Below are positions 2,088 to 62,365 of a stretch of DNA of 64,000 bases, piece after piece. This stretch comes from Patescibacteria group bacterium. GTDB lineage: Bacteria > Patescibacteriota > Patescibacteriia > UM-FILTER-42-10. The notes below the pieces were generated by a model that saw nothing but the letters and a program-made list of their open reading frames with translations, had not been told where the DNA came from and made no database searches. The translations under genes and the position numbers were made by a program. The first letter of the stretch is position 1, and each line of letters begins with the position of its first letter. The stretch is taken from assembly GCA_041666845.1 (NCBI GenBank), contig JBAYGC010000007.1, forward strand, positions 6,080-70,079. The letters are read 5' to 3'.

Positions 2088-2161
2088 AATGTTGAGTAAA
2101 ATCTTATTATTATATGGACAATTCTTATTTTAACACATTTTCAATAAAAAATTAAAAACGC

Positions 2162-2190
2162 TTGACAAATATACGGCGGTATTATATCTT
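2162..2190 (+). promoter_or_regulatory. sigma70-like promoter of GC-rich island 1 (TTGACA -35, TATA-rich -10)
   Basis: TTGACA at 2162-2167, TATATC/TATCTT region 2183-2190 at 15-17 nt spacing. Confidence 0.4.
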
Positions 2191-2330
2191 TACTTAATTA
2201 AAGTGCTTTATTACGATAAAGTACCAATCGATCTTTAACAAGTAAATCATGCGGAATATCCCTCTCCCCAGAAATGCAAACGACTGTTGCGCAATTCGCG
2301 ACTTCCAACCCGAGACAGGGAGGTGCTATC

Positions 2331-2573
2331 ATGGCGATTGACCCGACCAGCATTATCACAGCTCTCAACAACCTGAGCGGAGTCACCAACATTTCGGAAA
2401 ACGGCAGTTTGACCGTCCGGATCCCCGACGACAGTGGAAACACGGTGCACGTTGCCGTGGACCGCTTTACCGGCATTTGCACCTCGGCTGGGCAGGTAGT
2501 TGGAACATTTTCCACTAGCGACATCAGCTGGGCGCTCCCCAGTTCAATCTTCCCCCACAGCCAGAAACAGTGA
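2331..2573 (+). CDS. Hypothetical small protein (island 1, gene A), 80 aa, GC-rich
   Basis: ATG 2331 preceded by GGGAGG (2318-2323, 7-nt spacer); track ORF 2274-2573 trimmed to SD-supported start; about 55% GC vs AT-rich flanks; no recognisable motif. Confidence 0.4.
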   Translation: MAIDPTSIITALNNLSGVTNISENGSLTVRIPDDSGNTVHVAVDRFTGICTSAGQVVGTFSTSDISWALPSSIFPHSQKQ

Positions 2574-2657
2574 GCTGTTCCCCACCAACGCTCTCCTCAT
2601 CTGAAGTGACGACAATGTAGCGCCTTTACGAGGGCGCGCAACAAAGGAGGGTGAACC

Positions 2658-2927
2658 ATGGACAGGCAGTTCGTTATCACCGAGATCTGCAAACACATTC
2701 GGTCCCATCGGGACCGGAGGCTCGGTGCGTGCATCGACATCATTATCCCCTGGGGTAACAGTTGCCAGCTTTCCGTCCGCGTCGAGCGGGTGACCGGCAA
2801 GTGCATCAATTTGCACACCGATATGGAGATGCTGACCATTGACCCCCAGATCCTCGACGCGGCGTTTGCCGGGAAAGCGGTGGCTGAGCAGACCGACGGA
2901 CCACAATCCATGGGAGCTTACGCATGA
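2658..2927 (+). CDS. Hypothetical small protein (island 1, gene B), 89 aa
   Basis: ATG 2658 with near-consensus SD AAAGGAGGG (2643-2651, 6-nt spacer); stop TGA 2925-2927; followed by hairpin+T-run. Confidence 0.45.
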   Translation: MDRQFVITEICKHIRSHRDRRLGACIDIIIPWGNSCQLSVRVERVTGKCINLHTDMEMLTIDPQILDAAFAGKAVAEQTDGPQSMGAYA

Positions 2928-2966
2928 TTTGCAGATCGTTCGCCCTCACCGGGCGAAACACAAAAA

Positions 2967-3019
2967 GGCGACCAACACCTTAAGATTGCAACATCTTCAG
3001 CGGTCGCCTCGTTTTTTAT
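2967..3019 (+). terminator. Putative intrinsic terminator of island 1 (GGCGACC...GGTCGCC + TCGTTTTTTAT)
   Basis: 7-bp GC stem 2967-2973/3002-3008 (long 28-nt loop) followed by T-run 3011-3019; overlaps last codons of folC on opposite strand. Confidence 0.35.
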
Positions 3020-4316
3020 CCCTTAGAATTTCACCAATGGTGTATAGTGAGCCGGTAATAATTACTGCTCCGTCTTTCCCAGCCAATTTCTTCGCCTTAA
3101 CAATGCCACCATCTAATGAAGTCGTAATTATCCCTCTTGGATAATATTTTTTTAATTTTGATGCATGATAAAAATCCTTAAGATCATCAATTTTCGTTAC
3201 ATCGGGGAAAACTATTTTTTGAGAAAAAGCGGAAAGCGTGCGCAGTATTTCCGGCACTTGTTTTTTGGTATTTTTAATGCTGACGACAAAAACTGTATTG
3301 CCTGATTTTATTTTTACATCCCTTAATGCTTTTATGAGTGCTCTGATGCTGAATAAATTATGCGCACCGTCTAGAATAACTAGCGGATTTCTGTACCAGA
3401 TCTGGAATCTTGCTTCGTGTGCGGTGTTTGCAGATGCTTTAACAATTGCCTTTGACGGTATTTCAAACCCTTGGTCGCGCAATTGCAGAGCCGTCGCTAA
3501 TGCGCAGGCAAAGTTTTCCGCCTGATGTCTGCCAATCAGGGAGAGTCTCAGATTACGATATGTTTCACCCTGATAGTTGAGATCAATATAGGTTCCGGTC
3601 AAATCGACTTTATTGACTGAATATTTCAGGTCTTGATTAATATTGACTAATGAGGCTTTTTTAGCTTTCACTCTTTTTTTTACCACCTTCAATGCATTGC
3701 CTTTCACTGCTGTCACAACCTGGTCATTTGCTTGAATAATTCCGGCTTTTTCACCTGCTATTTTAGTAATCGTATTGCCGAGCGATTTAGTATGATCAAA
3801 ACTGATATTGGTAATGATTTTATTTTTCAAATTTACCGCAGTTGTGGCATCCAACCTCCCGCCCATACCAACCTCGATAACGACTACATCCGTTTTTTCT
3901 TCAGCAAAATACTGCACCGCAAGCGCAGTTGTAAATTCAAAAAAAGTAACATGGTCTCCACGTTTGCCGATTTCTTTCAATATTGGAATCATTCTATCAC
4001 CAATTTTTTTTACTCTTTGCAGTGAAATCGGCCTACCGTCGATCAAAATCCTTTCACTGGGCGATACTAAATACGGAGAATAGAATGATCCCGTTTTATA
4101 ACCGGCTTCTCTCAGGATTCTTTCTAGGAATGCCACCGTGGAACCTTTCCCCTTAGTACCGGCCACCTGCACGCCGACCAGTTTTTTTTCCGGACTACCC
4201 ATTTTCTTGAGTAGTGCTTTCACCCGGTGTAGTTGCAAAAAATCCCTACTGACAAAACGCGGGTCGTAAGGTTTCAGATATTCTTGGTACTGATTGAATA
4301 TTTCTTTTGCGCGCAC
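2997..4316 (-). CDS. folC: Mur ligase family protein, folylpolyglutamate synthase/dihydrofolate synthase-like (FolC)
   Basis: 439 aa; P-loop VAGTKGKGST typical of Mur ligase/FolC; C-terminal codons (KKRGDR) lie inside GC-rich island terminator. Confidence 0.75.
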   Translation of the reverse strand: MRAKEIFNQYQEYLKPYDPRFVSRDFLQLHRVKALLKKMGSPEKKLVGVQVAGTKGKGSTVAFLERILREAGYKTGSFYSPYLVSPSERILIDGRPISLQRVKKIGDRMIPILKEIGKRGDHVTFFEFTTALAVQYFAEEKTDVVVIEVGMGGRLDATTAVNLKNKIITNISFDHTKSLGNTITKIAGEKAGIIQANDQVVTAVKGNALKVVKKRVKAKKASLVNINQDLKYSVNKVDLTGTYIDLNYQGETYRNLRLSLIGRHQAENFACALATALQLRDQGFEIPSKAIVKASANTAHEARFQIWYRNPLVILDGAHNLFSIRALIKALRDVKIKSGNTVFVVSIKNTKKQVPEILRTLSAFSQKIVFPDVTKIDDLKDFYHASKLKKYYPRGIITTSLDGGIVKAKKLAGKDGAVIITGSLYTIGEILRDKKRGDR

Positions 4317-5174: not shown

Positions 5175-5203
5175 TTGACATCGAATTATTTCATTGTTAT
5201 TAT
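5175..5203 (+). promoter_or_regulatory. sigma70-like promoter of island 2 gene A (TTGACA-17-TATTAT)
   Basis: TTGACA 5175-5180, 17-nt spacer, TATTAT 5198-5203. Confidence 0.5.
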
Positions 5204-5271: not shown

Positions 5272-5679
5272 GTGGCCAACGATAGAGAGAAACGACACGC
5301 CTTTGAATTCCTTGTACACTGCCTCATCGGGGACGTTGCGCATGCCAAGGTGTTGCATGCACTAATTGACGCCGGGTCAGTCTCTTATGAAGAGCTGGGG
5401 ATTACCCCGGATGACATGGCAGTATTCCAGGCCCTATCCTGTATTGCAGACCCCAAGGAGCGTGCCCTATCGGCACTCCGCGGTTGTCGTGAAGGCAAGG
5501 TCCTCGCCAACTTCGGCGTGATTCAGTATCTATTCCGTTCCCGCCAAGTCCAACTGGCCGACCTGCAAGAGGGCGACAACGGCATCCTCAAAGTCGGCTC
5601 CGATCTGAGTCATTTTCACAAAGCACACACAGCACACCTCACCAGAATTCTTCCCCAGGAAGACCCTGCGCAAGACTAG
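5272..5679 (+). CDS. Hypothetical protein (island 2, gene A), 135 aa, GC-rich, His-rich C-terminus
   Basis: GTG start 5272 with SD GGAAGGAG (5258-5265); about 58% GC; no family recognised; no competing minus-strand ORF. Confidence 0.45.
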   Translation: MANDREKRHAFEFLVHCLIGDVAHAKVLHALIDAGSVSYEELGITPDDMAVFQALSCIADPKERALSALRGCREGKVLANFGVIQYLFRSRQVQLADLQEGDNGILKVGSDLSHFHKAHTAHLTRILPQEDPAQD

Positions 5680-5698
5680 TTTCTTGCGTTTTTTTTAT
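5669..5698 (+). terminator. Intrinsic terminator after island 2 gene A
   Basis: CGCAAGA(5669-5675)/TCTTGCG(5682-5688) stem, 6-nt loop, T8 run 5689-5697. Confidence 0.55.
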
Positions 5699-5721
5699 TC
5701 TTTATGATTTCAACCAATATT

Positions 5722-5750
5722 TTGACATATTTGTTTCATCATGATATGTT
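5722..5750 (+). promoter_or_regulatory. sigma70-like promoter of island 2 gene B (TTGACA-17-TATGTT)
   Basis: TTGACA 5722-5727, 17-nt spacer, TATGTT 5745-5750. Confidence 0.45.
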
Positions 5751-5805
5751 TTGCCAACCGCTGTTCGCTGGGGAACGGGGTAACTAACATCTGTAGGAGA
5801 CACTC

Positions 5806-6042
5806 TTGTTCTCGAAGCGCAGAATCAGAAAGTTTGTACGGCGGATTATCGCCTCAGCAGTTGGAGTAGGCATCGGGCTGATTCCGGCATGGTTTCTGCT
5901 CTATGACCTGCATACTGCCAAGAGTGGTGTGCTCTACTTCGCTCGCTGGTTGTGGCTCATTCTCACTGTACAGTTCTTTCTACTCATTCTAGTTTTCGCC
6001 TGGGTCTGGGCGGTCTGGACCAACCGGATCTATGACCTCTAA
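5806..6042 (+). CDS. Hypothetical small membrane protein (island 2, gene B), 78 aa, two predicted TM helices
   Basis: TTG start 5806 with SD AGGAGA (5795-5800, 5-nt spacer); two hydrophobic stretches (IIASAVGVGIGLIPAWFLL; WLWLILTVQFFLLILVFAWVWAVW). Confidence 0.45.
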   Translation: MFSKRRIRKFVRRIIASAVGVGIGLIPAWFLLYDLHTAKSGVLYFARWLWLILTVQFFLLILVFAWVWAVWTNRIYDL

Positions 6043-10960: not shown

Positions 10961-11024
10961 TTATCGCTTTACTTATGATAGATCAAGGTTATTTTACCAT
11001 TTTATAAACCTTTTTAAAAGTATC

Positions 11025-11053
11025 TTGACGCTTCATAGATAATGCTTTAGTAT
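11025..11053 (+). promoter_or_regulatory. sigma70-like promoter of island 3 (TTGACG-17-TAGTAT)
   Basis: TTGACG 11025-11030, 17-nt spacer, TAGTAT 11048-11053. Confidence 0.45.
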
Positions 11054-11274
11054 GGGAAATACATTAACAATTTGTTCAAGTTATCAAGAGTGATTCAGAT
11101 CCCGCCAATGCGGGAATATGCAGGACCGGCCTGCTAAAAACTGGATCCAGCAACCCTCTCCAAGGAGGAATGGGTGCTAACTCCGGCCCTATGCGGGGAA
11201 GATGATAGAAGTAAGATGCTTTCCTTAGGGAAAGTTTTTGTTTTGACTGCACCACTCCAACCGGGAGGGACCTC
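11054..11274 (+). promoter_or_regulatory. Structured 5' leader of island 3: hairpins, SD+GTG uORF start, terminator-like hairpin with U-tract
   Basis: hairpins CCCGCcaatGCGGG (11101-11114) and GCAGGaccggCCTGC (11120-11134); SD AAGGAGG 11162-11168 + GTG 11174; hairpin CTTTCC ttag GGAAAG (11219-11234) followed by TTTTTGTTTTG (11235-11245). Confidence 0.4.
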
Positions 11275-11622
11275 GTGGCTAACCCAACCAGTAATCAGGT
11301 CTTCCACGTCCTGTGCCGTCGAGCCGGGAAGATCGGCTACTATTCCCACGGTCATCCGCTGTGCAACCTGATTCTGGGACGTGAAGTATTCCTCTGCGAA
11401 CGCCATTACACCCCCAGCGGTTGGATCACGCGAATAGTCTGCGTTCCGCCGGAGGACATCCTCAACTACGTCGGTGAAGAAGACGCTCGAGTGATCCGAT
11501 CGAAATTCCCAACCTTCTCTGATCAGTTCACCATCAACGGTGACAACTACCCACAGCCGGAAGGGTTCGGTCCTCCTGTGAGGATCGAGCTGGAGCTGGA
11601 GCCTGCACCGCGGGCAAAGTAA
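11275..11622 (+). CDS. Hypothetical Cys/His-rich protein (island 3, gene A), 115 aa
   Basis: GTG 11275 with SD GGGAGGG (11263-11269, 5-nt spacer); about 57% GC; no family recognised. Confidence 0.45.
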   Translation: MANPTSNQVFHVLCRRAGKIGYYSHGHPLCNLILGREVFLCERHYTPSGWITRIVCVPPEDILNYVGEEDARVIRSKFPTFSDQFTINGDNYPQPEGFGPPVRIELELEPAPRAK

Positions 11623-11632
11623 GGAGCAGGTC

Positions 11633-11833
11633 ATGTCGCTGCGCGATGGACTCACACTTGCTGAGGCGACTGTTCGCCAACAGCACCTGGATCAGGCACA
11701 TCAAACAACTTCCCTTGCCGAAGACGAGCGCATCGTCCGGAGAGCAATTGCCCAGTACGAAGCAGGCGACGACACTCCGGTAGCCCGGGTAATCTCCAAA
11801 TGGATCGCCAGCCGCACGGCGCAATCGTTCTAA
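11633..11833 (+). CDS. Hypothetical small protein (island 3, gene B), 66 aa
   Basis: ATG 11633 with SD AAGGAG (11621-11626, 6-nt spacer); 10 nt after gene A stop (translationally coupled arrangement); followed by terminator. Confidence 0.45.
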   Translation: MSLRDGLTLAEATVRQQHLDQAHQTTSLAEDERIVRRAIAQYEAGDDTPVARVISKWIASRTAQSF

Positions 11834-11853
11834 TCGTACATTCACCCAATTCG

Positions 11854-11893
11854 AAAGGACCATGGTTCCCCACGGTCCTTTTTTTATTTTTAC
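11854..11893 (+). terminator. Intrinsic terminator of island 3
   Basis: AAAGGACCATGG ttcc CCACGGTCCTT stem (1 mismatch) followed by TTTTTTTATTTTT. Confidence 0.6.
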
Positions 11894-11901
11894 AACCTAT
11901 T

Positions 11902-15361: not shown

Positions 15362-15396
15362 TTATATAAAAAAAGCTATCTTGTGAGAGATAGCTA
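15362..15396 (-). terminator. Intrinsic terminator of prs (minus strand)
   Basis: AGCTATCT tgtgag AGATAGCT stem (15374-15395) overlapping stop codon, followed on minus strand by TTTTTTTATATAA. Confidence 0.55.
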
Positions 15397-16377
15397 GCGC
15401 TGTTCAAAGCAGATGTCCGAGACTGAGGTCTCGGTGGTAATCGCCTCGATTGCCGGGGCGAAAACATCTGCAAAAGAGCAAACCTTGATCTTCGAGCCGG
15501 GACCCGCCTTCGTGCCAACGGGGATAGTATCCCCCACCACTAGCGACTTCAGGCAGGAGCGTTCGATCTTACCTACGGCATCCCCGGAGAACACCGGATG
15601 TGCCGCGATCCCGTAAACCACTCTGGCACCAGCGTCCAGTAGTGCCTCCGCAGCGCCGATTATTGAGCCGGCGCCGTCCACCATGTCGTCCAGAACGATG
15701 CAGATGCATCCCTTCGGATCGCCGTAGATCTCGTTGACCCGGGACTGCCCGTGCCCGCTACGCTCCTTGTCGATGATTACGACACGATCTCCCGGGAAAC
15801 GGAACTTGCGGTAGTTGCGGACCATTTTGCCGCCGTTGACATCCGAGGACACTAGGGCTAGCGGCGTATCCGGGCCGTACTCTTCCCGTTCGCTCAACAC
15901 GATCCGCTTGATCTCCGGCACCATTACCGGATACATGTACAGGTGGTCACAGGGGATGTTGAAGAACCCCTGGATCTGCGCGGCGTGCAGTTCTGCCGTA
16001 ACCACCCGGCTGGCACCGGCCGTGGCCAGCAGGTCAGCGACTAGTCTGGCAGTAATCGGTACCCGCCCTTCCTTCTTGCGGTCCTGGCGCGCGCAGCCGA
16101 AATACGGCATAACGGCCGTAACAGCGGCGGCTGAAGCCCGTTTGGCAGCATCAATCATCACAAGCAACTGCATCAGGTTGTCGGCCGGCGAGTAAGTGGA
16201 CTGGATGATGAAAACGTGCCGGCCGCGCACATTCGCATTCAGCTGAGCAAACGGTTCCCCGTCAGCAAACGGAGTGGTCTTGGCCGAGCTCAAGGGAACA
16301 CCCAGTTTGGACGCGATCGCCTGAGCCAGCTCAGGGCACGATCCACCGGAAAACAGGACGATTCTGGAGAGATCCAT
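15394..16377 (-). CDS. prs: Ribose-phosphate pyrophosphokinase (PRPP synthetase), about 60% GC
   Basis: motifs FADGE, YFGCARQDRK, ELHAAQIQGFF, DDMVDGAGS; likely ATG at 16375-16377 with SD GAGGAGG (track ORF begins at upstream GTG 16386); strongly GC-rich relative to neighbours. Confidence 0.85.
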   Translation of the reverse strand: MDLSRIVLFSGGSCPELAQAIASKLGVPLSSAKTTPFADGEPFAQLNANVRGRHVFIIQSTYSPADNLMQLLVMIDAAKRASAAAVTAVMPYFGCARQDRKKEGRVPITARLVADLLATAGASRVVTAELHAAQIQGFFNIPCDHLYMYPVMVPEIKRIVLSEREEYGPDTPLALVSSDVNGGKMVRNYRKFRFPGDRVVIIDKERSGHGQSRVNEIYGDPKGCICIVLDDMVDGAGSIIGAAEALLDAGARVVYGIAAHPVFSGDAVGKIERSCLKSLVVGDTIPVGTKAGPGSKIKVCSFADVFAPAIEAITTETSVSDICFEQR

Positions 16378-16462
16378 CGCCGCCACCTCCTCACAGGCAA
16401 GTTACAGGGTTTCGGGTTGTCAAAGTATATTACCTTAACATGACCGTTAGGAGAATTCAAGT

Positions 16463-23606: not shown

Positions 23607-23720
23607 ACTGACAATATTAGACCAATTACGAATTATTGTCAAGCCGACATATAAAGTATAGTAAAAAAATGCCCCAACCAATAGTGGTGAGGCGAATGGA
23701 AAACAGGAATGTGCGAAATA

Positions 23721-23921
23721 CTAATCCCGTCTGGGCTTGTGCTTGATGCGCGGGGGTTTCCCCAAAGCGATCTCGTCAGCGATCTCCTTACGATGGACCG
23801 GGATGTCCTTGGGGGCGGTGATTCCGATCTGGACCTGGTCGCCACGGATGTCGACAATCATGATCGAAATTTGGTCTCCGATCACGATCACTTCGTTGAG
23901 TTTGCGACTCAAGATCAGCAT
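23721..23921 (-). CDS. csrA: Carbon storage regulator CsrA (RNA-binding global regulator), GC-rich
   Basis: 66 aa from ATG 23919-23921 with SD GGAGGA (6-nt spacer); MLILSRK..GD.I.I......G.QV.IGI.AP..I.VHR.EI signature; about 55% GC. Confidence 0.8.
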
Positions 23922-24009
23922 GGGTCTTCCTCCTTGAAGGGTCAAACTACCCCCGCAAAATAACGAGAGCCAAATTACAATAGCAAGGATTAAATTTTAA
24001 TGCAAGTAT

Positions 24010-24229: not shown

Positions 24230-24305
24230 TGGTGGAGATGAGGGGACTCGAACCCCTAACCCCTTCCATGCCATGGAAGTGCTCTACCAATTGAGCCACA
24301 TCCCC
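24230..24305 (-). tRNA. tRNA-Ala (anticodon GGC)
   Basis: cloverleaf readable on minus strand: acceptor GGGGATG/CATCTCC with G3:U70 Ala identity pair, anticodon loop AUGGCAU, T-loop GGTTCGAGTCC, encoded CCA. Confidence 0.85.
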
Positions 24306-24583
24306 GTATATACTCCAGTATTTCTCTACGTCTATCCAATTCAGAGTAATCAAATTATATTATGCTTAACACAATATGTCTAGACGATGATACTTATACT
24401 ATTTATATTCCCGACTATTTATAATATTCATCTGATTCTTAAAGTAATACTTCGATTTGTGATTAGTATTGTTTACCCATATATCACTAGAATTTGTATT
24501 GCATCAAACAATAATATATTTACATTCGTCATGAATTACATTAATCCTGATATTGATTGTCACTACTAAACATTGAATAAAAG

Positions 24584-24609
24584 ATAAATGTTCCACGTGG
24601 AACATTTAT
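24584..24609. repeat. Perfect 26-bp palindrome ATAAATGTTCCACGTGGAACATTTAT (CACGTG core), candidate operator
   Basis: read directly; self-complementary; upstream of tRNA-Ala(GGC). Confidence 0.7.
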
Positions 24610-24666
24610 TCATATCTATATAAGAATGGGGAATTTATTCAAGTATTTTTAACATTGATCCGTGTC

Positions 24667-24740
24667 TGGTGGAGATACTGGGAATCGAACCCAGGCCTCA
24701 GCAATGCGAATGCTGCGTAATGCCTCTTTACTATATCCCC
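24667..24740 (-). tRNA. tRNA-Ala (anticodon CGC)
   Basis: acceptor GGGGATA/TATCTCC with G3:U70; anticodon stem CAGCA/TGCTG, loop UUCGCAU; T-arm CTGGG TTCGATT CCCAG; CCA encoded. Confidence 0.8.
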
Positions 24741-24799
24741 AGCAAACATGGATCAATATTTGGCGTCTAATTAAACTATAGAAACAATATAATATACAG

Positions 24800-24874
24800 T
24801 GGTGCCCCCGGCAGGAATCGAACCTACATTTAAAGCTTAGGAGTCTCTCGTTCTATCCATTGAACTACGGGGGC
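24800..24874 (-). tRNA. tRNA-Arg (anticodon CCU)
   Basis: acceptor GCCCCCG/CGGGGGC, D-arm GTTC AATGGAT(A) GAAC, anticodon loop CUCCUAA (U33, A37), T-loop TTCGATT, CCA encoded; one A-G mismatch at base of anticodon stem. Confidence 0.7.
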
Positions 24875-27345: not shown

Positions 27346-27483
27346 TTAGGCAGATAACTTAGCCCGCTTTTTTGCTCTTCTTCTTTTCAAGACCTTTTTC
27401 CCAGTATGAGAACTCATTCTTTCTCGAAAACCGTGAGTCTTTTGTCTTTTTCTTTTCTTCGGCTGATATGTTCTTTTAGGCAT
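27346..27483 (-). CDS. rpmH: 50S ribosomal protein L34
   Basis: 45 aa, [45 protein letters not shown]; not in ORF track (too short); canonical position upstream of rnpA. Confidence 0.85.
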
Positions 27484-27699
27484 CTTTTTCTTTTATGATT
27501 TTTCTGTTACCTAATTATAAGTATATGTAGTCTATCAGACGAGGAGATGAAGGTCAACGCCTAAAAATATCCTTAAAATATTTATCCTCACTTTTTCCAC
27601 AGATTATGAACAAGGTCGTCTCGTTTTACCGATATCTGTCTTTAATGTTTTGTGGTATAGTCAGTATTAGTCAATATTTAGCAATAATCTTTACATGAT
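27484..27699. promoter_or_regulatory. Candidate oriC segment / dnaA promoter region with DnaA-box-like 9-mers
   Basis: TTATCCTCA (27582-27590), TTTTCCACA (27593-27601), TGTGGTATA (27651-27659); between divergent rpmH and dnaA. Confidence 0.45.
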
Positions 27700-29067
27700 A
27701 TGACAAAGGAGCAGTTGTGGCAGGCGGTCTTAGGGGAGTTAGAACTATCGCTGAGTAAAGCCAACTTTACCACTTGGTTTAATAATACCTTTGTTTCAGA
27801 GTTTGAAGATAATGTAGTAGTAATTGCCGTCCCGAATACTTTCACAAAGACATGGTTTGAAAATAAATATCATGGGGCTATTGCCCAGGCTTTGCAAAAT
27901 GTAACAGATGGTGGGGTTAAAGAAGTGACTTATAAGGTAGAGTCTTCTAAGAACCCCAAGAATGGCATGATTGCTAAAACCCAAACCACAGAAGCAGATC
28001 GAAAGGTTGACTCACTGAAGAAGAAAGATTCTGCAGAAGCAAATAATGGATTAAACCCCTTATATACTTTTGAGAATTTTGTCGTCGGCAAAGGAAATGA
28101 TCTGGCGAAAGCTGCTTGTATCGCAACCGCGGAAAAACCAGGGATTATTTATAATCCTCTTTTCATTTACGGTGGTGTTGGGCTGGGTAAGACCCATTTA
28201 CTACAGGCGGTTGGGCATCGCACTATGGAAGTTTATAATAACAAAAAGGTTGTTTATGTCACGTGCGAGAGTTTCACTAATGATTTTATTCAAGCGGTTA
28301 GTAACGGCCGGACAGAAAAATTTAAAGATTTTTATCGTTCTGTCGATGTTCTTTTGATTGATGACATCCAGTTTCTAGCCACTAAAGAAAGAACCCAAGA
28401 AGAGTTTTTTCATACCTTCAATGCCTTACATCAAGCCAGAAAACAAATTGTGATCAGTTCTGACCGCCCACCAAAAGCAATCCCAGCTCTTGAGAAAAGG
28501 CTGATTTCCCGCTTTGAATGGGGGATGATTGCTGACATCTCCAGCCCGGATCTTGAAACCAGAACCGCAATTCTAGAAACCAAGTGCCGGGAAAAGGGCT
28601 ACGAATTGAGTAATGAAATTCTTTCTTCTATCGCCGCCTCCGTTCACAATAACGTTCGTGAGCTTGAGGGGGCTTTAAACCGCATCATTGCCCACCATCA
28701 ATTGAATAACAGCGTACCTACACTAGAATCAACAAGAGAAGTGTTGTCCGCACTAGCTAACACGCCACGAAAAGGCGCTTTAACCCCAAAACAAGTTATT
28801 TCTACGGTTGCGGAATTTTATGAAATTAGCATTAAAGACTTGACCGGGGAAAGTAGAAAAAAAGAACTGGTGGTCCCCAGACAGATCTCTATGTTTTTAA
28901 TGAGAGAAGAAATAAAGACCTCCTACCCGAGTATTGGGCAAGAGGTTGGTGGCAGAGACCACACAACAGCAATGCATGCATACATGAAAATTACCAAAGA
29001 AGTTGAAGAAAATGAAAAAATCAAACAAGAAATTGATCTGATTCTTCAAAGGCTTTATAATAATTAA
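27700..29067 (+). CDS. dnaA: Chromosomal replication initiator protein DnaA
   Basis: 455 aa; AAA+ Walker A GGVGLGKTHLL, sensor/arginine finger region, C-terminal DNA-binding HTH. Confidence 0.95.
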   Translation: MTKEQLWQAVLGELELSLSKANFTTWFNNTFVSEFEDNVVVIAVPNTFTKTWFENKYHGAIAQALQNVTDGGVKEVTYKVESSKNPKNGMIAKTQTTEADRKVDSLKKKDSAEANNGLNPLYTFENFVVGKGNDLAKAACIATAEKPGIIYNPLFIYGGVGLGKTHLLQAVGHRTMEVYNNKKVVYVTCESFTNDFIQAVSNGRTEKFKDFYRSVDVLLIDDIQFLATKERTQEEFFHTFNALHQARKQIVISSDRPPKAIPALEKRLISRFEWGMIADISSPDLETRTAILETKCREKGYELSNEILSSIAASVHNNVRELEGALNRIIAHHQLNNSVPTLESTREVLSALANTPRKGALTPKQVISTVAEFYEISIKDLTGESRKKELVVPRQISMFLMREEIKTSYPSIGQEVGGRDHTTAMHAYMKITKEVEENEKIKQEIDLILQRLYNN

Positions 29068-29159
29068 CTTTTTGGTGGAAAAGATTGTTGATAAAGGATG
29101 TAGATAATTTGTTTAGAAGTCAGAAGTATTTCTTCATTTAAACTGGTGCACAGTACACT

Positions 29160-29278
29160 CATCTACTTATCCAAAACAAAGTGTTAATAAAAACTTCTTA
29201 AAACAAAAGAGAAAGTAAAGAATCACGATCGTTATCCACTTATTAACATTATTACTACTATAATTAATATAATATACT
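29160..29278. promoter_or_regulatory. dnaA-dnaN intergenic region with DnaA boxes and AT-rich DUE-like tract
   Basis: TTATCCAAA (29167-29175), TTATCCACT (29232-29240), then ATTATTACTACTATAATTAATATAATATACT. Confidence 0.45.
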
Positions 29279-30385
29279 ATGAAACTATATTGTACTCAGG
29301 AGAATTTAAACAGGGGATTAAATATTGTCAGTCATCTTGCAGGTAAAAATACCACCTTGCCAATACTTGATAATATTTTAGTGAGTATTGAAAATGGAGT
29401 AATTCAACTTTCCACCACAAATTTGGAAATGGGGATCAGTTGTAAAATAAGAGGCAAGGTTGAAAGCGAAGGGAAAACAACTATCCCGGCGAAACTGTTT
29501 GCTGATTATGTCAGTCTTTTACCAAACGAAAAAATTTATATAGAAGAAACAGAAAAAAAGATTTATATCAGTTGCACAGATCAAGAGACGACAATTCAAG
29601 GGATGTCGGCGGAAGATTATCCACTGATCCCGTCTTTAGAAAAAAAGAATAAAATTGTAATCAAAGCCGAGGACTTAAAAAATGTAGTTAGGGAAACACT
29701 GTTCGCGGCGGCCTATGATGAAACTAGACCGGAAATCAGCGGAGTATTAGTCAAAATAGAGGGTAATAAAGCAAGGTTTGTTGCCACAGACAGTTACCGG
29801 TTGGCTGAAAAAACAATAATTATTGACGCAAAAGAGGTGGGAGATGTGGAAAGTATCTTACCTTCCAGAACACTACAAGAGTTGGTTAGGATTGTCGGGA
29901 TGTCTCAGGTAGAAGAAATAGAGATGTATATAGCAGAGAATCAGGTGTTGTTTTGTCTTGATGACGTTGAAATTATTTCCCGGGCAATTGAGGGTAATTA
30001 CCCGGATTACCAGCAGATAATTCCAAAAGATAAAAAAACCGCAGTGCTTGCCAATAAAGAAGACCTGTTGAAAGTAATAAAAACAACCAGCTTGTTTTCC
30101 AAGAGCGGAATTAATGATGTAAATCTAAAAGTCGTTACGGAAAATAAAGAATTGATTGTGTCAGCAATTAATTCACAGTTGGGTGAAAACATATCGAGAA
30201 TGAAAGTGGAGATTGAAGGCGAAGATAACCAGATAGTTTTCAATCATCGTTACCTTCTGGACGGATTGCAAAGTATTAATTCCGAAAGAGTATCGCTGGA
30301 AATAATTAATAATACCAATCCAGGGGTAGTTAGGCCGGAAAATGACGAAAATTATGTCTATATAATTATGCCGATAAAGCAGTAG
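29279..30385 (+). CDS. dnaN: DNA polymerase III beta sliding clamp
   Basis: 368 aa; three-domain clamp, N-terminal LNRGLNIVSH...TLPIL. Confidence 0.9.
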   Translation: MKLYCTQENLNRGLNIVSHLAGKNTTLPILDNILVSIENGVIQLSTTNLEMGISCKIRGKVESEGKTTIPAKLFADYVSLLPNEKIYIEETEKKIYISCTDQETTIQGMSAEDYPLIPSLEKKNKIVIKAEDLKNVVRETLFAAAYDETRPEISGVLVKIEGNKARFVATDSYRLAEKTIIIDAKEVGDVESILPSRTLQELVRIVGMSQVEEIEMYIAENQVLFCLDDVEIISRAIEGNYPDYQQIIPKDKKTAVLANKEDLLKVIKTTSLFSKSGINDVNLKVVTENKELIVSAINSQLGENISRMKVEIEGEDNQIVFNHRYLLDGLQSINSERVSLEIINNTNPGVVRPENDENYVYIIMPIKQ

Positions 30386-57684: not shown

Positions 57685-58977
57685 ATGATAAGTTTACCGA
57701 GCAAAGCAAGAACAATATTGTTATTTGTGCTAATATTTTTGGTTTATATCAGTTCCGTTCGTTTTCTTGGCACAATTGATGGGGCGCCGACCAGAATGTT
57801 GCCGATCAGCATATTGAAGGAGGGGGATTTTGATCTGGATGAATATGTGCCGGCAAGGCAGGATGATTTTGTTTGGTTTGTACTGATCGAAACCACTGAC
57901 GGGCATTTTATTTCCAAATATCCGGTATTATCATCAATATTAGCTCTGCCTTTTTATGCCATACCACATTTTTTGGGTATAGGATTCACCACCGCAATTA
58001 TTATTACTTTGTCTAAAATATCAGCAGCCTTTATCACTGCCATATCCGCAATATTATTATTGTTCATTTTTCGGAAATATCTTTCAGAGAAATGGTCGGT
58101 ATTTTTGACTATTGCCTATGCTTTTGGTACTAGTAGCTGGACAGTGTCAAGCCAAGATTTGTGGCAACACGGCGCCAGCCAGCTATTTCTGATTTTGACC
58201 GTCTATTTATTGTTGAAACCTAAAAAAAGTGATCTGAGATTTTTATTGATCGGAGTTGTTATCGGCTTGTCAATTGCCGCACGTTATTTAAATGTCATTT
58301 TTGGGGCAGTATATTTAATCTTTATATTATATAAGTACCGGACAAAAATATTTTCTACATTGCTCGGGGTGCTTGTTCCGCTGTCCTTGGTTTTAATCTA
58401 TCAATCATATTATTTGGATAATCCATTCCAAACGGGGTACAGTTGTAATGCATATAGTAACCGTTCCTTTGCCTGCATTGAAGGTTGGTACAGTGAATTC
58501 TGGGATGGGTTCGGCGGGCTATTAATCAGTCCAAGCCGGGGCTTGTTTATTTTTACTCCATTCCTGATATTTAGTTTGATTGGAATGTGGTTGATTTGGA
58601 AGCGAAATAAAAAAGAAGTGCGAGATTATAATCTGCTTTTCAAGTTTACTTCGATTGGCGTACTAATATTTGTTGTAGTTATGAGTAAATGGTGGGCGTG
58701 GTATGGTGGGGTTACATACGGTCCAAGAATGTTGGCTGATATTACTCCACTTATGATGTTATTTTTTATTCCCTTATTAAGAAGTGAATTGTTCAAAAGA
58801 AAAGTTGTCCCGGCTATTTTTATTTTGTTGGTAGTGTTTTCTATTATTAACCAATTCACTGGTATTATTTTCTGGGATGGTTCGTGGCAAAAAGCAGACA
58901 CTCTGTCTGCTGATCATGCATGGCTCTGGGATTGGGGGAATAGTCAATTAATTTATTATATAAAAATGTTTTTTTGA
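57685..58977 (+). CDS. Polytopic membrane protein, GT-C-fold glycosyltransferase-like
   Basis: 430 aa, about 12 TM; overlaps next gene by 4 nt. Confidence 0.45.
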   Translation: MISLPSKARTILLFVLIFLVYISSVRFLGTIDGAPTRMLPISILKEGDFDLDEYVPARQDDFVWFVLIETTDGHFISKYPVLSSILALPFYAIPHFLGIGFTTAIIITLSKISAAFITAISAILLLFIFRKYLSEKWSVFLTIAYAFGTSSWTVSSQDLWQHGASQLFLILTVYLLLKPKKSDLRFLLIGVVIGLSIAARYLNVIFGAVYLIFILYKYRTKIFSTLLGVLVPLSLVLIYQSYYLDNPFQTGYSCNAYSNRSFACIEGWYSEFWDGFGGLLISPSRGLFIFTPFLIFSLIGMWLIWKRNKKEVRDYNLLFKFTSIGVLIFVVVMSKWWAWYGGVTYGPRMLADITPLMMLFFIPLLRSELFKRKVVPAIFILLVVFSIINQFTGIIFWDGSWQKADTLSADHAWLWDWGNSQLIYYIKMFF

Positions 58978-60671
58978 TGATAAACGCTAAAATATTTTCA
59001 AACATAAAAAAACATCTATTAATAATCACGTTATTTGTTGTTTTAACTGTGGTGATGACTTATCCGTGGGTTAACCATATGGATACGTGGGTGCATGACG
59101 GGGCGGATTCTTATTTTATCGCGTGGAACCTGGCATGGGACGTAAATTCATTTCAAAATGATGTCGGTAATATATTTAATGCCAATATTTTTTATCCGCA
59201 TGATAATACCCTGGCCTATTCCGAGCATCTGATCGGCACGGCATTATTGGTGTGGCCGATTCTGGCTCTAACTCATAACCCGATTCTGGCATATAACATT
59301 GTGACCTTCATATTCTTTGTTCTGGGTGCCTATTGCATGTATTTGTTTATGTTCAAACTTACACGTAATTTACCCGTTTCGATTATCAGTGCCATAATTT
59401 TCGGGTTTAACCCGTATCGAGTAATTCATTTCAGCCAGATTCATTTGCAGGTAATCTTTTTCTTCCCCTTGATTTTATTGATCTTACATCGGTTATTTGA
59501 ATCCAAAAAACACCGGGATTTTATTTTTTTGATTTTAGCCTACGTCACGTTGGGTTATATGAGTATGCACTATCTGTTAATGATGGCTGTTGTTACAATA
59601 GTGTTCTCAGTTTTCTATTTTGCCGCCATTGATAAAAAATTGCCGGAAAAGAAATTCATTATTAAGCTGGGGTTAGCCTTTTTTCTGGTTATTCTAGCTA
59701 TTTTGCCGGTGTATTACCCGTATTTTTTTGCACATGATGAAAACGGTTACAGCCGTTCCTATAGCATGATTACGACTTACTCACCGACTGTCATGGATTA
59801 TCTAGCTTTCTCTCCACTAATTACAAAAATTGTCGGTTTTCCCAATACGATAGAGAGAGTGCTGTATACCGGGTTTACAGTAGTAATATTGTTTTTTGTC
59901 AGTTTATATTATCTGATCAAGCGGCGCATTGTAGATCAGAAAACAATTGAGATTCTTTTGCTCTATCTGCTGATCGGTGCGGTTTGCGTATTATTGTCAT
60001 TTGGTATTTTGGTGCGGTTTACGACGGACGGTGGCGGGGTGGTCGGTCCGTATATATTTTTCTATAAATTAATTCCCGGGTTTGACGGTCTGCGCGCTTT
60101 GGGGAGATTTTTTGTTGTTGTTCTGCTTTCAATCAGCGTTGTTATTGGTCTGGGGTTAAACCAGATGTTGAGAAGAATCAAAAAGAGATTTATTTATGGT
60201 TCGGTCGTTATTTTGGTTGCCTCATTAATAATGGTCGAATATCTCTGGGTACCGCCATTTCAGCCGGTGGAATACCGTGAGGCGTTGATTGATAATAAAA
60301 TTCCGGAAGTGTATCATTGGCTCGCGGAGAAGTCGGATGACTCGGTGATTCTTGAATTACCTTTGGATGTTAACTTGAGAAAAAGCACCGAATATATGTA
60401 TTTATCCGTATATCACTGGAAAAAAATGATCAACGGGTACAGCGGGTTTTTCCCAGAAGATTATATCAAGCTGGAAAAAATGATTGCGGACAATTTTACC
60501 GGTGATGAAACTCAAAATGAAATATCGAAAGCGGGCGTGAAATATATAATCGTACATTTTGGCGTCCAATCAAAATTTACTACTCAAATAACACCCGAAG
60601 GATTAGACCAACTGCCAAAACTCAGACTGATAGAAACTTTCGGGACCGACTACGTTTATGAAGTAATATAG
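58974..60671 (+). CDS. Polytopic membrane protein (GT-C/YfhO-like), tandem paralog 1
   Basis: 565 aa; strong similarity to 60677-62365 product (e.g. NIFNANIFYPHDNTLAYSEHLIG vs DIFNANIFYPNKNTLAYSENLIG). Confidence 0.45.
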   Translation: MMINAKIFSNIKKHLLIITLFVVLTVVMTYPWVNHMDTWVHDGADSYFIAWNLAWDVNSFQNDVGNIFNANIFYPHDNTLAYSEHLIGTALLVWPILALTHNPILAYNIVTFIFFVLGAYCMYLFMFKLTRNLPVSIISAIIFGFNPYRVIHFSQIHLQVIFFFPLILLILHRLFESKKHRDFIFLILAYVTLGYMSMHYLLMMAVVTIVFSVFYFAAIDKKLPEKKFIIKLGLAFFLVILAILPVYYPYFFAHDENGYSRSYSMITTYSPTVMDYLAFSPLITKIVGFPNTIERVLYTGFTVVILFFVSLYYLIKRRIVDQKTIEILLLYLLIGAVCVLLSFGILVRFTTDGGGVVGPYIFFYKLIPGFDGLRALGRFFVVVLLSISVVIGLGLNQMLRRIKKRFIYGSVVILVASLIMVEYLWVPPFQPVEYREALIDNKIPEVYHWLAEKSDDSVILELPLDVNLRKSTEYMYLSVYHWKKMINGYSGFFPEDYIKLEKMIADNFTGDETQNEISKAGVKYIIVHFGVQSKFTTQITPEGLDQLPKLRLIETFGTDYVYEVI

Positions 60672-60676
60672 CAAAT

Positions 60677-62365
60677 ATGGGTAATCATCCATTGAAGAGA
60701 AATAGTCTGGCGGTGGTAATATTTTTATTGCTGACATTTTTGATGACTTTCCCATGGGGTGCCCGGCTGGCAACGTCGGTACAGGCCAGCAGTGATTCCT
60801 ATTTCAATATATGGACAATTGCCTGGGACGTTCATATGTTTCAGGAAAATCCTACCGATATATTTAATGCTAATATATTCTATCCGAATAAAAACACACT
60901 GGCCTATTCTGAAAATCTGATCGGATCTGCATTATTTGCCTGGCCGGTTATTGCTTTGAGCGGTAATCCAGTTTTGGCTTACAATATAATTATCTTTATA
61001 TTTTTTGTTCTAGCCGGTTACTGCATGTATCTGTTGGCTTATTATTTTACAAAAAATTTTCCGGTCTCTATCTTAGGCGGTATCATCTACGGCTTTAATG
61101 CATATATGTTTTTGCATTTTAATCTGTTGCATATCATGGCAGTATTTTTTTTCCCTTTGATTTTTTTGATTATGCATAAGCTGGTTGAATCGGAGAAAAG
61201 GAAGTACTTTGCCTATTTTATCGTTACTTTCACACTGCTTGGCTATATGAGTATGCATTTTTTTATGATGCTATTATTGTTTATCCCGGTTTATTTATTG
61301 GTATATTACGGGGTGATAAAAAGAAAAATGCCAAGCAAAAAAATCATCGTCAATTTTGTTATTTCCTTTATTATATCTACTATCATTATTCTGCCTGTTT
61401 TTTATCCCTATCTCACATTACGCACCAACATTGAATATGACCGTTCATATGCCATGGTCAACCAGTTTTCACCGACAGTCACTGACTATCTTACATTTTC
61501 ACCAATGCTTATGGGTCTATTTGAATTACCGAAAAATATTTTTAAGACATACATTTATTCCGGCTTTACCGTATTATTTTTGGTCATTTTCAGTATAATA
61601 ATGCTGATAAAAAAGTATTACAGACAGAAGGAAATTATTAATATATCCTCCCTTTATATTATTATTGGTTTTGTTGCCTTCATTATGTCTTTTGGCGTAG
61701 TGATCAGATTTTCCGAAAACGACCCGGGTGTTGTCGGGCCGTTTATGTTACTTTTTGAATTTGTTCCGGGATTTTCCAGTCTCAGGGCGCTTGGCAGGTT
61801 TTCGATCGTAATACTGCTCTCGATGAGTGTGATCATAACTATAATTTTGAATCAGTATATGACCAGGTTCAAAAAAAAGTTTGTGTATGTCGGGATGCTG
61901 CTGATCATCAGTTGTCTGGTTATCCTGGAATATATGATTATCCCACCGTTGAAGCCGGTTAATTTGGAAACGGTCAAAACCGGTTCAAATATACCGGAAG
62001 TTTATCGCTGGCTATCGGAGCAAAAAGACGATACAGTCATACTCGAGTTGCCGATTTGGGTAAATGGTATGGAAGAAACTGCAAAGTATCAGTATTATTC
62101 GGCATTCCATTGGCACAGGCAAATGCACGGGTATAGTGGTTATTATCCGCCCGAATACCGAAAAATATTTATCAAGCCATTAAAAGATTTGCTGAATGAT
62201 GATACTATTAAAGAAATCCGGGCAGTTGGAGTTGATTACATAATATTGCACACCGGTGCTTCGATGGAATTCGCAAAAGAATTAAGAGAAGCGGATGTCA
62301 AAAACAATCAGAATCTTCAGTTAATAGAAATATTTGGTAGCGATTGGGTGTATCAAATAAAATAA
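60677..62365 (+). CDS. Polytopic membrane protein (GT-C/YfhO-like), tandem paralog 2
   Basis: 562 aa; same architecture as preceding gene. Confidence 0.45.
   Translation: MGNHPLKRNSLAVVIFLLLTFLMTFPWGARLATSVQASSDSYFNIWTIAWDVHMFQENPTDIFNANIFYPNKNTLAYSENLIGSALFAWPVIALSGNPVLAYNIIIFIFFVLAGYCMYLLAYYFTKNFPVSILGGIIYGFNAYMFLHFNLLHIMAVFFFPLIFLIMHKLVESEKRKYFAYFIVTFTLLGYMSMHFFMMLLLFIPVYLLVYYGVIKRKMPSKKIIVNFVISFIISTIIILPVFYPYLTLRTNIEYDRSYAMVNQFSPTVTDYLTFSPMLMGLFELPKNIFKTYIYSGFTVLFLVIFSIIMLIKKYYRQKEIINISSLYIIIGFVAFIMSFGVVIRFSENDPGVVGPFMLLFEFVPGFSSLRALGRFSIVILLSMSVIITIILNQYMTRFKKKFVYVGMLLIISCLVILEYMIIPPLKPVNLETVKTGSNIPEVYRWLSEQKDDTVILELPIWVNGMEETAKYQYYSAFHWHRQMHGYSGYYPPEYRKIFIKPLKDLLNDDTIKEIRAVGVDYIILHTGASMEFAKELREADVKNNQNLQLIEIFGSDWVYQIK

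Follow-up and report, generated by a model that had tools for sequence, protein, structure and literature searches.

A 64,000-nt stretch of DNA from a Patescibacteria group bacterium (assembly GCA_041666845.1, contig JBAYGC010000007.1, positions 6,080 to 70,079 of the forward strand; hereafter the window) contains, between the minus-strand genes for a metallo-beta-lactamase (MBL)-fold hydrolase (1335-2087) and folC (2997-4316), an island with a GC content of 55-60%, compared with ~38% in its flanks and ~41% in the window as a whole. Comparison of this island with related genomes identifies the plus-strand segment 2162-3017 as one transcription unit, composed of a promoter, a hairpin, two small genes designated A (2331-2573) and B (2658-2927), and a terminator. 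Taking all lines of evidence together, we conclude with moderate confidence that this unit is a vertically inherited, clade-restricted operon encoding two orphan small proteins that appear to be paralogs. An earlier reading of the window, made from its letters without any comparison (the sequence-only reading), had described the two genes as a plus-strand cassette. To this the present analysis adds the orthologs of both genes and their synteny, the apparent A/B paralogy, the probable derivation of most of the leader from a gene (Z) that has been deleted, a set of twin palindromes, the predicted occlusion of the Shine-Dalgarno (SD) sequence of B, and GC-rich synonymous sites of long standing. 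Close protein matches of the window are labelled 'Patescibacteria group bacterium', and a literature search returned nothing specific.

Two small-protein genes conserved beside folC

Gene A starts at ATG 2331, 7 nt after the SD GGGAGG (2318-2323), and encodes an 80-aa acidic cytoplasmic protein with an invariant RxTGICTS motif; gene B starts at ATG 2658 behind the near-perfect SD AAAGGAGGG and encodes an 89-aa protein with invariant PWG and RxTGxC motifs. Both genes are present as the sequence-only reading had placed them. An alternative start for A at 2274, yielding 99 aa, was discarded because the added upstream part is not conserved. At 58% GC the length of an open reading frame (ORF) is by itself no evidence of coding, and the case for translation therefore rests on comparison with relatives. 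Both ORFs are intact and of conserved length in 6-7 divergent lineages, with the terminal stop codon as the only one. Pairwise differences at codon positions 1/2/3 amount to 187/121/387 for A and 343/252/482 for B, and the synonymous share of changed codons in the plus-strand frame is 0.49 for A and 0.38 for B, against at most 0.17 in four other frames. The ratio of nonsynonymous to synonymous divergence (dN/dS, Nei-Gojobori) ranges from 0.10 to 0.15 for A and from 0.19 to 0.44 for B. The two genes thus combine the marks of protein-coding sequence, namely an excess of changes at position 3, an open ORF of kept length and a dN/dS below 1, and since they do so they are very probably real plus-strand genes under purifying selection. 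The conservation of their lengths across lineages likewise speaks against their being pieces of a longer gene.

Long ORFs also exist on the minus strand of the same DNA (2198-2524, 2544-2906 and 2597-2911; 108, 120 and 104 aa, respectively). That these are the real genes might be argued from their length of 104-120 aa and from a public annotation in GCA_041664365.1 (JBAYKW010000007.1), in which a 93-aa minus-strand gene has been called across A (L004, 5660-5941). The minus frames are nonetheless interrupted by stops in various lineages and lack both an SD and a synonymous excess that is theirs alone: the only antisense frame above 0.17 is the one that has its third positions in common with the genes (0.42 over A, 0.29 over B), and it too contains stops in various lineages. 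In L004 the 80-aa plus-strand ORF of A is intact (5687-5929), and the public call looks like a mis-annotation. We regard minus-strand genes at this locus as having a negligible probability, in line with the earlier dismissal of these ORFs as GC-induced artefacts. Other public records already carry genes of this kind as 'hypothetical protein' (e.g. WC693_05830).

The cassette was found in about seven divergent Patescibacteria lineages, as a single copy and at the same syntenic site in all of them. Wherever the contig is long enough it lies convergent with folC, which is followed by nfo; the upstream neighbour is variable. Gene A is represented in eight lineages at 55-88% identity, with 80 aa in seven of them and 78 aa in one (P0014). 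Full-length versions of gene B occur in seven lineages, six of which encode 89 aa at 60-89% identity and one (L014/P0011) 96 aa at 48% identity; an additional homolog (P0006) is partial, with 71 aa. L007 has kept B and lost A. An exhaustive profile search with B recovered its own clade only, amounting to 3 clusters among 1.84 billion representative proteins, and the cassette family was detected in 2 of 185,579 species genomes and at 5 metagenome loci. Neither A nor B was found by tblastn in phages and plasmids or by a scan of IMG/VR viral contigs. The earlier statement that the two proteins have no recognisable homologs hence holds for known families and fails for related genomes, in which clear orthologs are present. 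There is, in our judgement, little doubt that the operon has been inherited vertically and is confined to one Patescibacteria clade.

Some of these lineages carry an additional gene. In L014 and L012 the order is Z (~145 aa), A, B, and in L007 it is Z, B, with the A-B spacer kept. Traces of Z are discernible in the window, where ATCATGCGGAATATC (2240-2254) aligns with the start of Z in L007, ATCATGATCCGGATTATC, and where GCAATTCGCGAC...ACAGGGAGGTG matches the Z-A spacer of L014, GCAATTCACAC...ACGGAGGTG. On the strength of these alignments, the ancestral operon was in all likelihood Z-A-B, Z was deleted in the lineage of the window, and most of what had been taken for a leader is what the deletion left behind. 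The putative relic (2240-2297, plus strand) includes a start-codon remnant (ATG 2243-2245) that lacks an SD and reads ATA in L001, and would not be a functional leader element; it is followed by a homolog of the ancestral Z-A spacer (2298-2330, plus strand), which carries the SD of A. A 30-codon upstream ORF starting at ATG 2243 was rejected as a candidate gene on the same grounds (no SD, ATG lost in L001) and is read as part of the relic. A tblastn search found no copy of Z elsewhere in the window, and hhalign detected no relation between Z and B. Where it is present (L014, 5194-5634; L007, 4220-4654; L012, 1-351; L024, 2465-2824), Z encodes a beta-rich protein of ~145 aa with a conserved GSTFGGSxIRVxWIG motif, and a 119-aa protein from the 595-kb genome of an uncultured phage (LR756511.1) is weakly related to it (32% identity, E = 6e-5).

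AlphaFold2 models built on small alignments predict a helix, a five-stranded beta meander and a helix for A (predicted local distance difference test, pLDDT, 83.2; predicted template modelling score, pTM, 0.69), and a helix, a four-stranded beta meander, a helix and a disordered tail for B (pLDDT 74.8). Several comparisons connect the two proteins. BLASTP reveals a core in common (IPx8VxVxRxTGxC), the alignment of their profiles with hhalign extends over the beta core in a register that matches the predicted strands (E = 5.3e-5, 67% probability), and the order of secondary-structure elements agrees between the two models. A and B hence appear to be old tandem paralogs, and as adjacent paralogs conserved together they probably act as a hetero-oligomer. 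Judged from their sequences, A is an acidic protein and the N-terminal helix of B is basic. In B, the cluster C49-x3-H/C53-x-D55-x-E57, in which C49 is invariant, may by way of speculation be considered a metal site. Searched with A, B and Z, the Pfam, NCBIfam, PHROGs and PADLOC collections yielded sub-threshold noise only; no profile in Pfam, NCBIfam or PADLOC came near its cut-off with A or B at E values up to 1, and sequence profiles of the PDB gave nothing for either protein. Foldseek comparison of both models with the PDB, and of B with BFVD, likewise gave no usable match (best E 0.1-0.5, template modelling score ≤0.41), and neither protein matches a described family, in agreement with the sequence-only reading.

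Expression signals of the operon

Transcription would start from a strong sigma-70-type promoter (2162-2190, plus strand), the TTGACA of which had been pointed out earlier. It consists of a -35 box TTGACA (2162-2167), a 17-nt spacer and a -10 box TATCTT (2185-2190), agrees with the consensus at 10 of 12 positions, and places the predicted start near 2196-2197. Across six aligned lineages the -35 box is invariant, the -10 box reads TAYNCT and a 42-nt block from the -10 box onward is almost invariant, while the spacer between the boxes (16-17 nt) is scrambled. Retention of the boxes on either side of a scrambled spacer is what a real promoter would be expected to show.

The conserved block contains two palindromes. 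Palindrome 1, CTTTA-N6-TAAAG (2188-2203), extends from the end of the -10 box over the predicted start, and palindrome 2 (core 2206-2221, extended 2203-2224, plus strand) can form the 9-bp hairpin GUGCUUUAU-UACG-AUAAAGUAC, in which GTGCTTTAT (2203-2211) pairs with ATAAAGTAC (2216-2224). The motif CTTTA-N6-TAAAG occurs twice in the 64 kb of the window, both times here, against an expectation of 0.2, and it occurs exactly twice, 18 bp apart, in every related locus for which the promoter region is available. An operon-specific palindrome thus overlaps the promoter. The arms of palindrome 1 are invariant, and the RNA probably starts downstream of the 5' one. Its position over the -10 box and the predicted start makes a role in RNA unlikely and points to one in DNA, as a candidate operator. 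From the sequence and its conservation we infer that the palindromes, which extend over the -10 box and the start site and from +10 to +25, are operators for a dedicated dimeric repressor. That B, alone or together with A, is this protein and that the operon regulates itself is a tentative and rather doubtful extension, put forward because B is the only product of the operon in every lineage that keeps the palindromes; the basic N-terminal helix of B may be cited beside it.

The sequence-only reading had further described a structured leader of about 140 nt with a 9-bp hairpin. The hairpin is real, being the only leader helix common to the minimum free energy (MFE) and centroid folds, while the leader overall is not unusually structured (z = -0.99) and is conserved only in its first ~30 nt, which is also the part that looks functional. 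In six lineages 96% of cells pair in the hairpin, and its three changes, all one-sided, preserve pairing (G-U to G-C or A-U, G-C to G-U); no pair has changed on both sides. A potential anti-SD for A within the leader, CCCTCTCCCC (2264-2273), is not conserved in relatives and was set aside. Stem-loops at the 5' terminus stabilise the ompA mRNA of Escherichia coli, in its 5' untranslated region (UTR), and the aprE and ermC mRNAs of Bacillus subtilis, in their leaders, and the stable 9-bp hairpin, which lies ~6 nt from where the mRNA is predicted to begin, could similarly shield the transcript from decay. It differs from those elements in that the sequence itself is near-invariant and is one of two equally spaced DNA palindromes, so that a protein operator fits at least equally well. 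Palindrome 2 is accordingly treated here as a candidate second operator, a candidate 5' stabiliser, or both.

A further conserved element lies between the two genes. The A-B spacer measures 84 nt and contains, 4-25 nt after the stop codon of A, the 22-nt element GTTCCCCACCAACGCTCTCCTC (2577-2598, plus strand), which bears two C-rich anti-SD tracts and is nearly invariant in six lineages, including L007, from which A has been deleted. One tract, CGCUCUCCU (2589-2597), pairs with the SD of B, AGGAGGGUG (2645-2653, plus strand; GGAGG 7 nt before ATG 2658), in both the MFE and the consensus folds. Just 5' of the SD, the resulting stem-loop is capped by the apical hairpin GCGCCUU-UACG-AGGGCGC (2616-2640, plus strand), which recurs at the same place in each lineage with a different sequence, its structure being kept and its sequence not. 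The SD of B is invariant in all lineages and base-paired in every predicted spacer fold, and separate MFE folds of 7 out of 7 lineages sequester it with the conserved spacer element, through pairs that show no covariation. Occlusion of initiation at B is the best-supported mechanistic inference from these folds. Ribosomes finishing A, or another factor as in L007, would open the stem-loop and permit translation of B, and such coupling would hold the A:B ratio fixed. We consider SD occlusion combined with A-B coupling to be slightly favoured on the available predictions.

Translational coupling through long-range occlusion of an SD operates in the rpmI-rplT (L35-L20) operon of E. coli and between the coat and replicase genes of phage MS2. 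The spacer resembles these systems in that the conserved partner of the SD of B is found shortly after the end of A, within reach of a terminating ribosome that could open the pairing. It departs from them in that the anti-SD lies in the 84-nt intergenic spacer rather than in the upstream ORF, in that a variable apical hairpin is present in every lineage, and in that the element outlives the loss of the upstream gene. RNA thermometers (ROSE, fourU) also hide the SD of a small-protein gene within an upstream hairpin; here, by contrast, no Rfam match was obtained, and the pairing comprises 9 G+C-rich base pairs without the weak or non-canonical ones that thermometers typically contain.

Two small genes under a promoter overlapped by palindromes, one with an acidic product and the other with a basic helix in its product, invite comparison with type II toxin-antitoxin (TA) modules or with defence/anti-defence pairs autoregulated via operator palindromes, and anti-defence, TA-like and regulatory roles had all been proposed for A and B. 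The first two fit the comparative data poorly. No toxin, antitoxin or defence profile was matched in Pfam or PADLOC, and none in PHROGs. The cassette is single-copy, non-mobile and vertically inherited at one fixed chromosomal site by folC in every lineage, with a very narrow range instead of the patchy and broad one expected of such systems, and it is missing from the phage, plasmid and viral-contig collections. A and B are apparent paralogs without family match, separated by a long structured spacer of 84 nt and not by overlapping or abutting ORFs, and lineages that lost A (L007) or Z retained the locus. The neighbours are housekeeping genes (folC, nfo, and genes for the MBL-fold hydrolase, a kinase-like NTPase and an IMPase), which is neither a defence island nor a phage location. 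A TA or defence function is therefore highly improbable; a regulatory role for A and B is possible.

At the 3' end of the unit, a first hairpin, TTCGCCC-TCACC-GGGCGAA (2939-2957, plus strand), is present in the four lineages of the A-B clade, with 96.6% of cells pairing and one compensatory change of C-G to U-A. It is followed by a bidirectional intrinsic terminator (2967-3017), in which GGCGACC (2967-2973) pairs with GGTCGCC (3002-3008), followed by TCGTTTTTT. The T-run on the plus strand spans 3012-3017, and TTTTTGTGTTT serves the minus-strand side. The loop is unusually long (28 nt), with an inner AAGAT/ATCTT hairpin, and the stop codon of folC (2997-2999) falls inside the element. Across seven lineages all cells of the stem pair (100%), and at two of its pairs both partners have changed. 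A G+C-rich covarying stem with a T-run is the mark of an intrinsic terminator, and 2967-3017, already noted as a GC stem with T-run, is almost certainly a covarying terminator hairpin that the operon has in common with the convergent folC.

Persistence of GC-rich synonymous sites

The single unusual feature of the operon is that its synonymous sites are persistently GC-rich and slow to change. GC content at third codon positions (GC3) is 0.70 for A and 0.76 for B in the window and stays at 0.66-0.76, compared with 0.27-0.39 in the neighbouring genes and 0.23-0.49 in ordinary window genes, and over all lineages it is 0.44-0.76 for A and B versus 0.29-0.42 for their folC and nfo. Synonymous divergence (dS) of B is also low, ranging from 0.26 to 1.17 against 1.04 to saturation for folC and nfo in the same genome pairs. 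The contrast is seen in L010 (0.26 vs 1.13-1.70), L004 (0.59 vs 1.04-1.53), L001 (0.75 vs 1.23-1.42) and L007 (0.78 vs 3.6 to saturated). The dN of B is not below that of the flanks.

A composition of this kind could be that of a GC-rich donor, had the island arrived as foreign DNA or with a mobile element. The GC content of 55-60% between flanks of ~38%, a codon usage of A and B that lies 4-8 standard deviations away from the mean of the window's genes, the lack of homologs in the wider phylum, the presence of other GC-rich genes, including prs, scattered in the same window, and the weak phage relative of the lost partner Z could all be taken in its favour. The cassette nevertheless occupies the same position, with the same GC excess, in seven lineages whose flanking folC and nfo genes have diverged at synonymous sites from 1.0 to saturation (infinite dS). 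Given the common site and the saturated flanks, any transfer would predate the clade, and the GC3 imported from the donor should have decayed by now. More recent exchange is countered by the promoter spacer, which has been randomised when the synonymous sites of B have not, so that the low dS of B is better explained by constraint on synonymous sites. In addition, the search of 1.84e9 representative proteins brought up no donor, phages, plasmids and IMG/VR contain no relatives of A or B, and no repeats, integrase, tRNA or mobile-element borders were found at the island edges. We thus consider a foreign origin of the composition unlikely.

A second explanation is that the locus acts through a structured RNA, either non-coding or with a dual function, the ORFs being incidental or secondary. 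In AT-rich genomes, structured RNAs typically stand out as GC-rich islands. The whole transcript folds at z = -3.8 relative to dinucleotide shuffles, a value exaggerated by the mixture of AT-rich and GC-rich sequence within it. The consensus structure of the B mRNA beats 100 of 100 codon-column shuffles (z = -3.07), with 7 pairs showing double changes where 2.9 ± 1.1 are expected, and the dS of B is reduced. Among its elements are a hairpin at 2700-2716 (plus strand), in which three lineages have A-U in place of G-C at the synonymous positions of R15 and D19, and a hairpin at 2774-2792 (plus strand) with two compensatory pairs. On the other side, a three-base periodicity of substitutions, kept ORF lengths, low dN/dS and conserved SDs and starts point to translation, the consensus z of A is 0.0, and Rfam has no match at E up to 1 in 2090-3060. 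These observations exclude a purely non-coding RNA, an objection that does not extend to a dual role of the B mRNA; as an account of the operon, an RNA product in place of the proteins seems to us about as unlikely as a foreign origin. For the protein-coding operon, selection at the RNA level on GC-rich synonymous sites is supported for B only. Since A is GC3-rich and shows no such signal, RNA structure cannot explain the whole composition, and the GC3 excess remains partly unexplained.

Other segments of the window have a similar composition. The same arrangement recurs in a second GC-rich island, which has a TTGACA-17-TATTAT promoter near 5177, a hairpin in its leader, an SD, a 135-aa ORF (5272-5679, plus strand) and a terminator; the ORF matches no family, is conserved at the same site in relatives, and has a GC3 of 0.60, a dN/dS of ~0.10-0.15 and a consensus RNA structure z of -3.08. 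It is followed by a 78-aa hydrophobic ORF (5806-6042, plus strand; GC3 0.63). A third island (11020-11900, plus strand), with a TTGACG promoter and a terminator near 11850-11880, contains ORFs of 115 aa (11275-11622) and 66 aa (11633-11833), the product of the latter having weak RmrA-like (E = 8e-4) and RstR-like (0.02) matches; an overlapping 173-aa minus-strand ORF may be a GC artefact. An 84-aa ORF (23709-23963, plus strand; GC 0.53, GC3 0.55) without Pfam match stands amid minus-strand housekeeping genes, and one housekeeping gene, prs for ribose-phosphate pyrophosphokinase (15394-16386, minus strand), has the composition of the islands (GC 60%, GC3 0.72). With respect to replication, dnaA (27700-29067) and dnaN (29279-30385) adjoin the minimum of the cumulative GC skew (~27.4 kb), and to the left of this minimum the housekeeping genes are all on the minus strand. 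The GC-rich small-ORF islands to the left of the origin region (27400-30385) are all on the plus strand, and are therefore head-on to replication.

It is conceivable, if rather improbable on present evidence, that A and B exemplify a class of GC-rich small-protein operons, in this AT-rich clade of Patescibacteria, whose synonymous sites are kept GC-rich and slow to evolve by selection at the mRNA level, the transcript of which would be a structured, functional or specially regulated RNA in addition to a message. Other candidates for this putative class would be 5272-5679, 5806-6042, ~11170-11840 and 23709-23963, all head-on to replication. We know of no description of such a synonymous-site constraint in genomes of the candidate phyla radiation (CPR).

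Two features of the window lie apart from the islands. Rfam models at gathering score detected in the whole window 3 tRNAs, all outside 2090-3060, and three tRNA genes (Ala-GGC, Ala-CGC and Arg-CCT) are clustered at 24230-24874 on the minus strand. Tandem paralogous genes of 565 and 562 aa (58974-60671 and 60677-62365, plus strand) form direct repeats of 74-77% identity with a spacing of 1688 bp.

Weight of the evidence and significance

Several observations weigh against the reading of this unit as an operon of paralogous proteins with dedicated control elements. The A/B paralogy is drawn from an alignment of 27 columns (67% probability), a known DNA-binding fold is not recognisable in either model, and no homology informs the function of the proteins. 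The palindromes and the 5' hairpin are invariant, so that covariation offers no means of telling an RNA hairpin from an operator. In the spacer, the SD/anti-SD pairs are likewise invariant, support coming only from the recurrence of the pairing in independent MFE predictions and from the apical hairpin with its variable sequence; folds of single sequences have weak z-scores (-0.5 to -2.7), and the retention of the element in L007, where A is gone, indicates that coupling to A is not its sole role. The RNA-structure test applied to B is somewhat liberal, 2 of 7 control segments giving z below -2, single-sequence synonymous-codon shuffles for B reach only -0.5 to -2.5, and A, equally GC3-rich, scored no excess at all.

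Patescibacteria have small genomes in which a large share of genes has no assigned function. Like other orphan small-protein genes of Patescibacteria/CPR, A and B are short, belong to no family, occur in a narrow clade and are recorded as 'hypothetical protein'. In comparison with most such orphans, they add purifying selection in seven lineages, fixed synteny, an apparent internal duplication, a reconstructed three-gene ancestor and conserved cis-elements. Their analysis defines two new small protein families, apparently paralogous, and shows that a GC-rich island of intergenic appearance can harbour real, selected small-protein genes. It also provides a corrected annotation, one public genome having the wrong strand called, and opens the twin palindromes, the hairpin at the mRNA 5' end and the SD-occluding spacer to testing. 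In most respects the locus is an ordinary lineage-specific orphan operon with conventional, well-conserved expression signals, linked neither to defence nor to mobility nor to a long-standing open question. The persistent GC3 excess, together with the reduced synonymous divergence, is the sole feature that goes beyond standard explanations, and, if it proved general across the other islands, it would point to RNA-level selection in reduced genomes.

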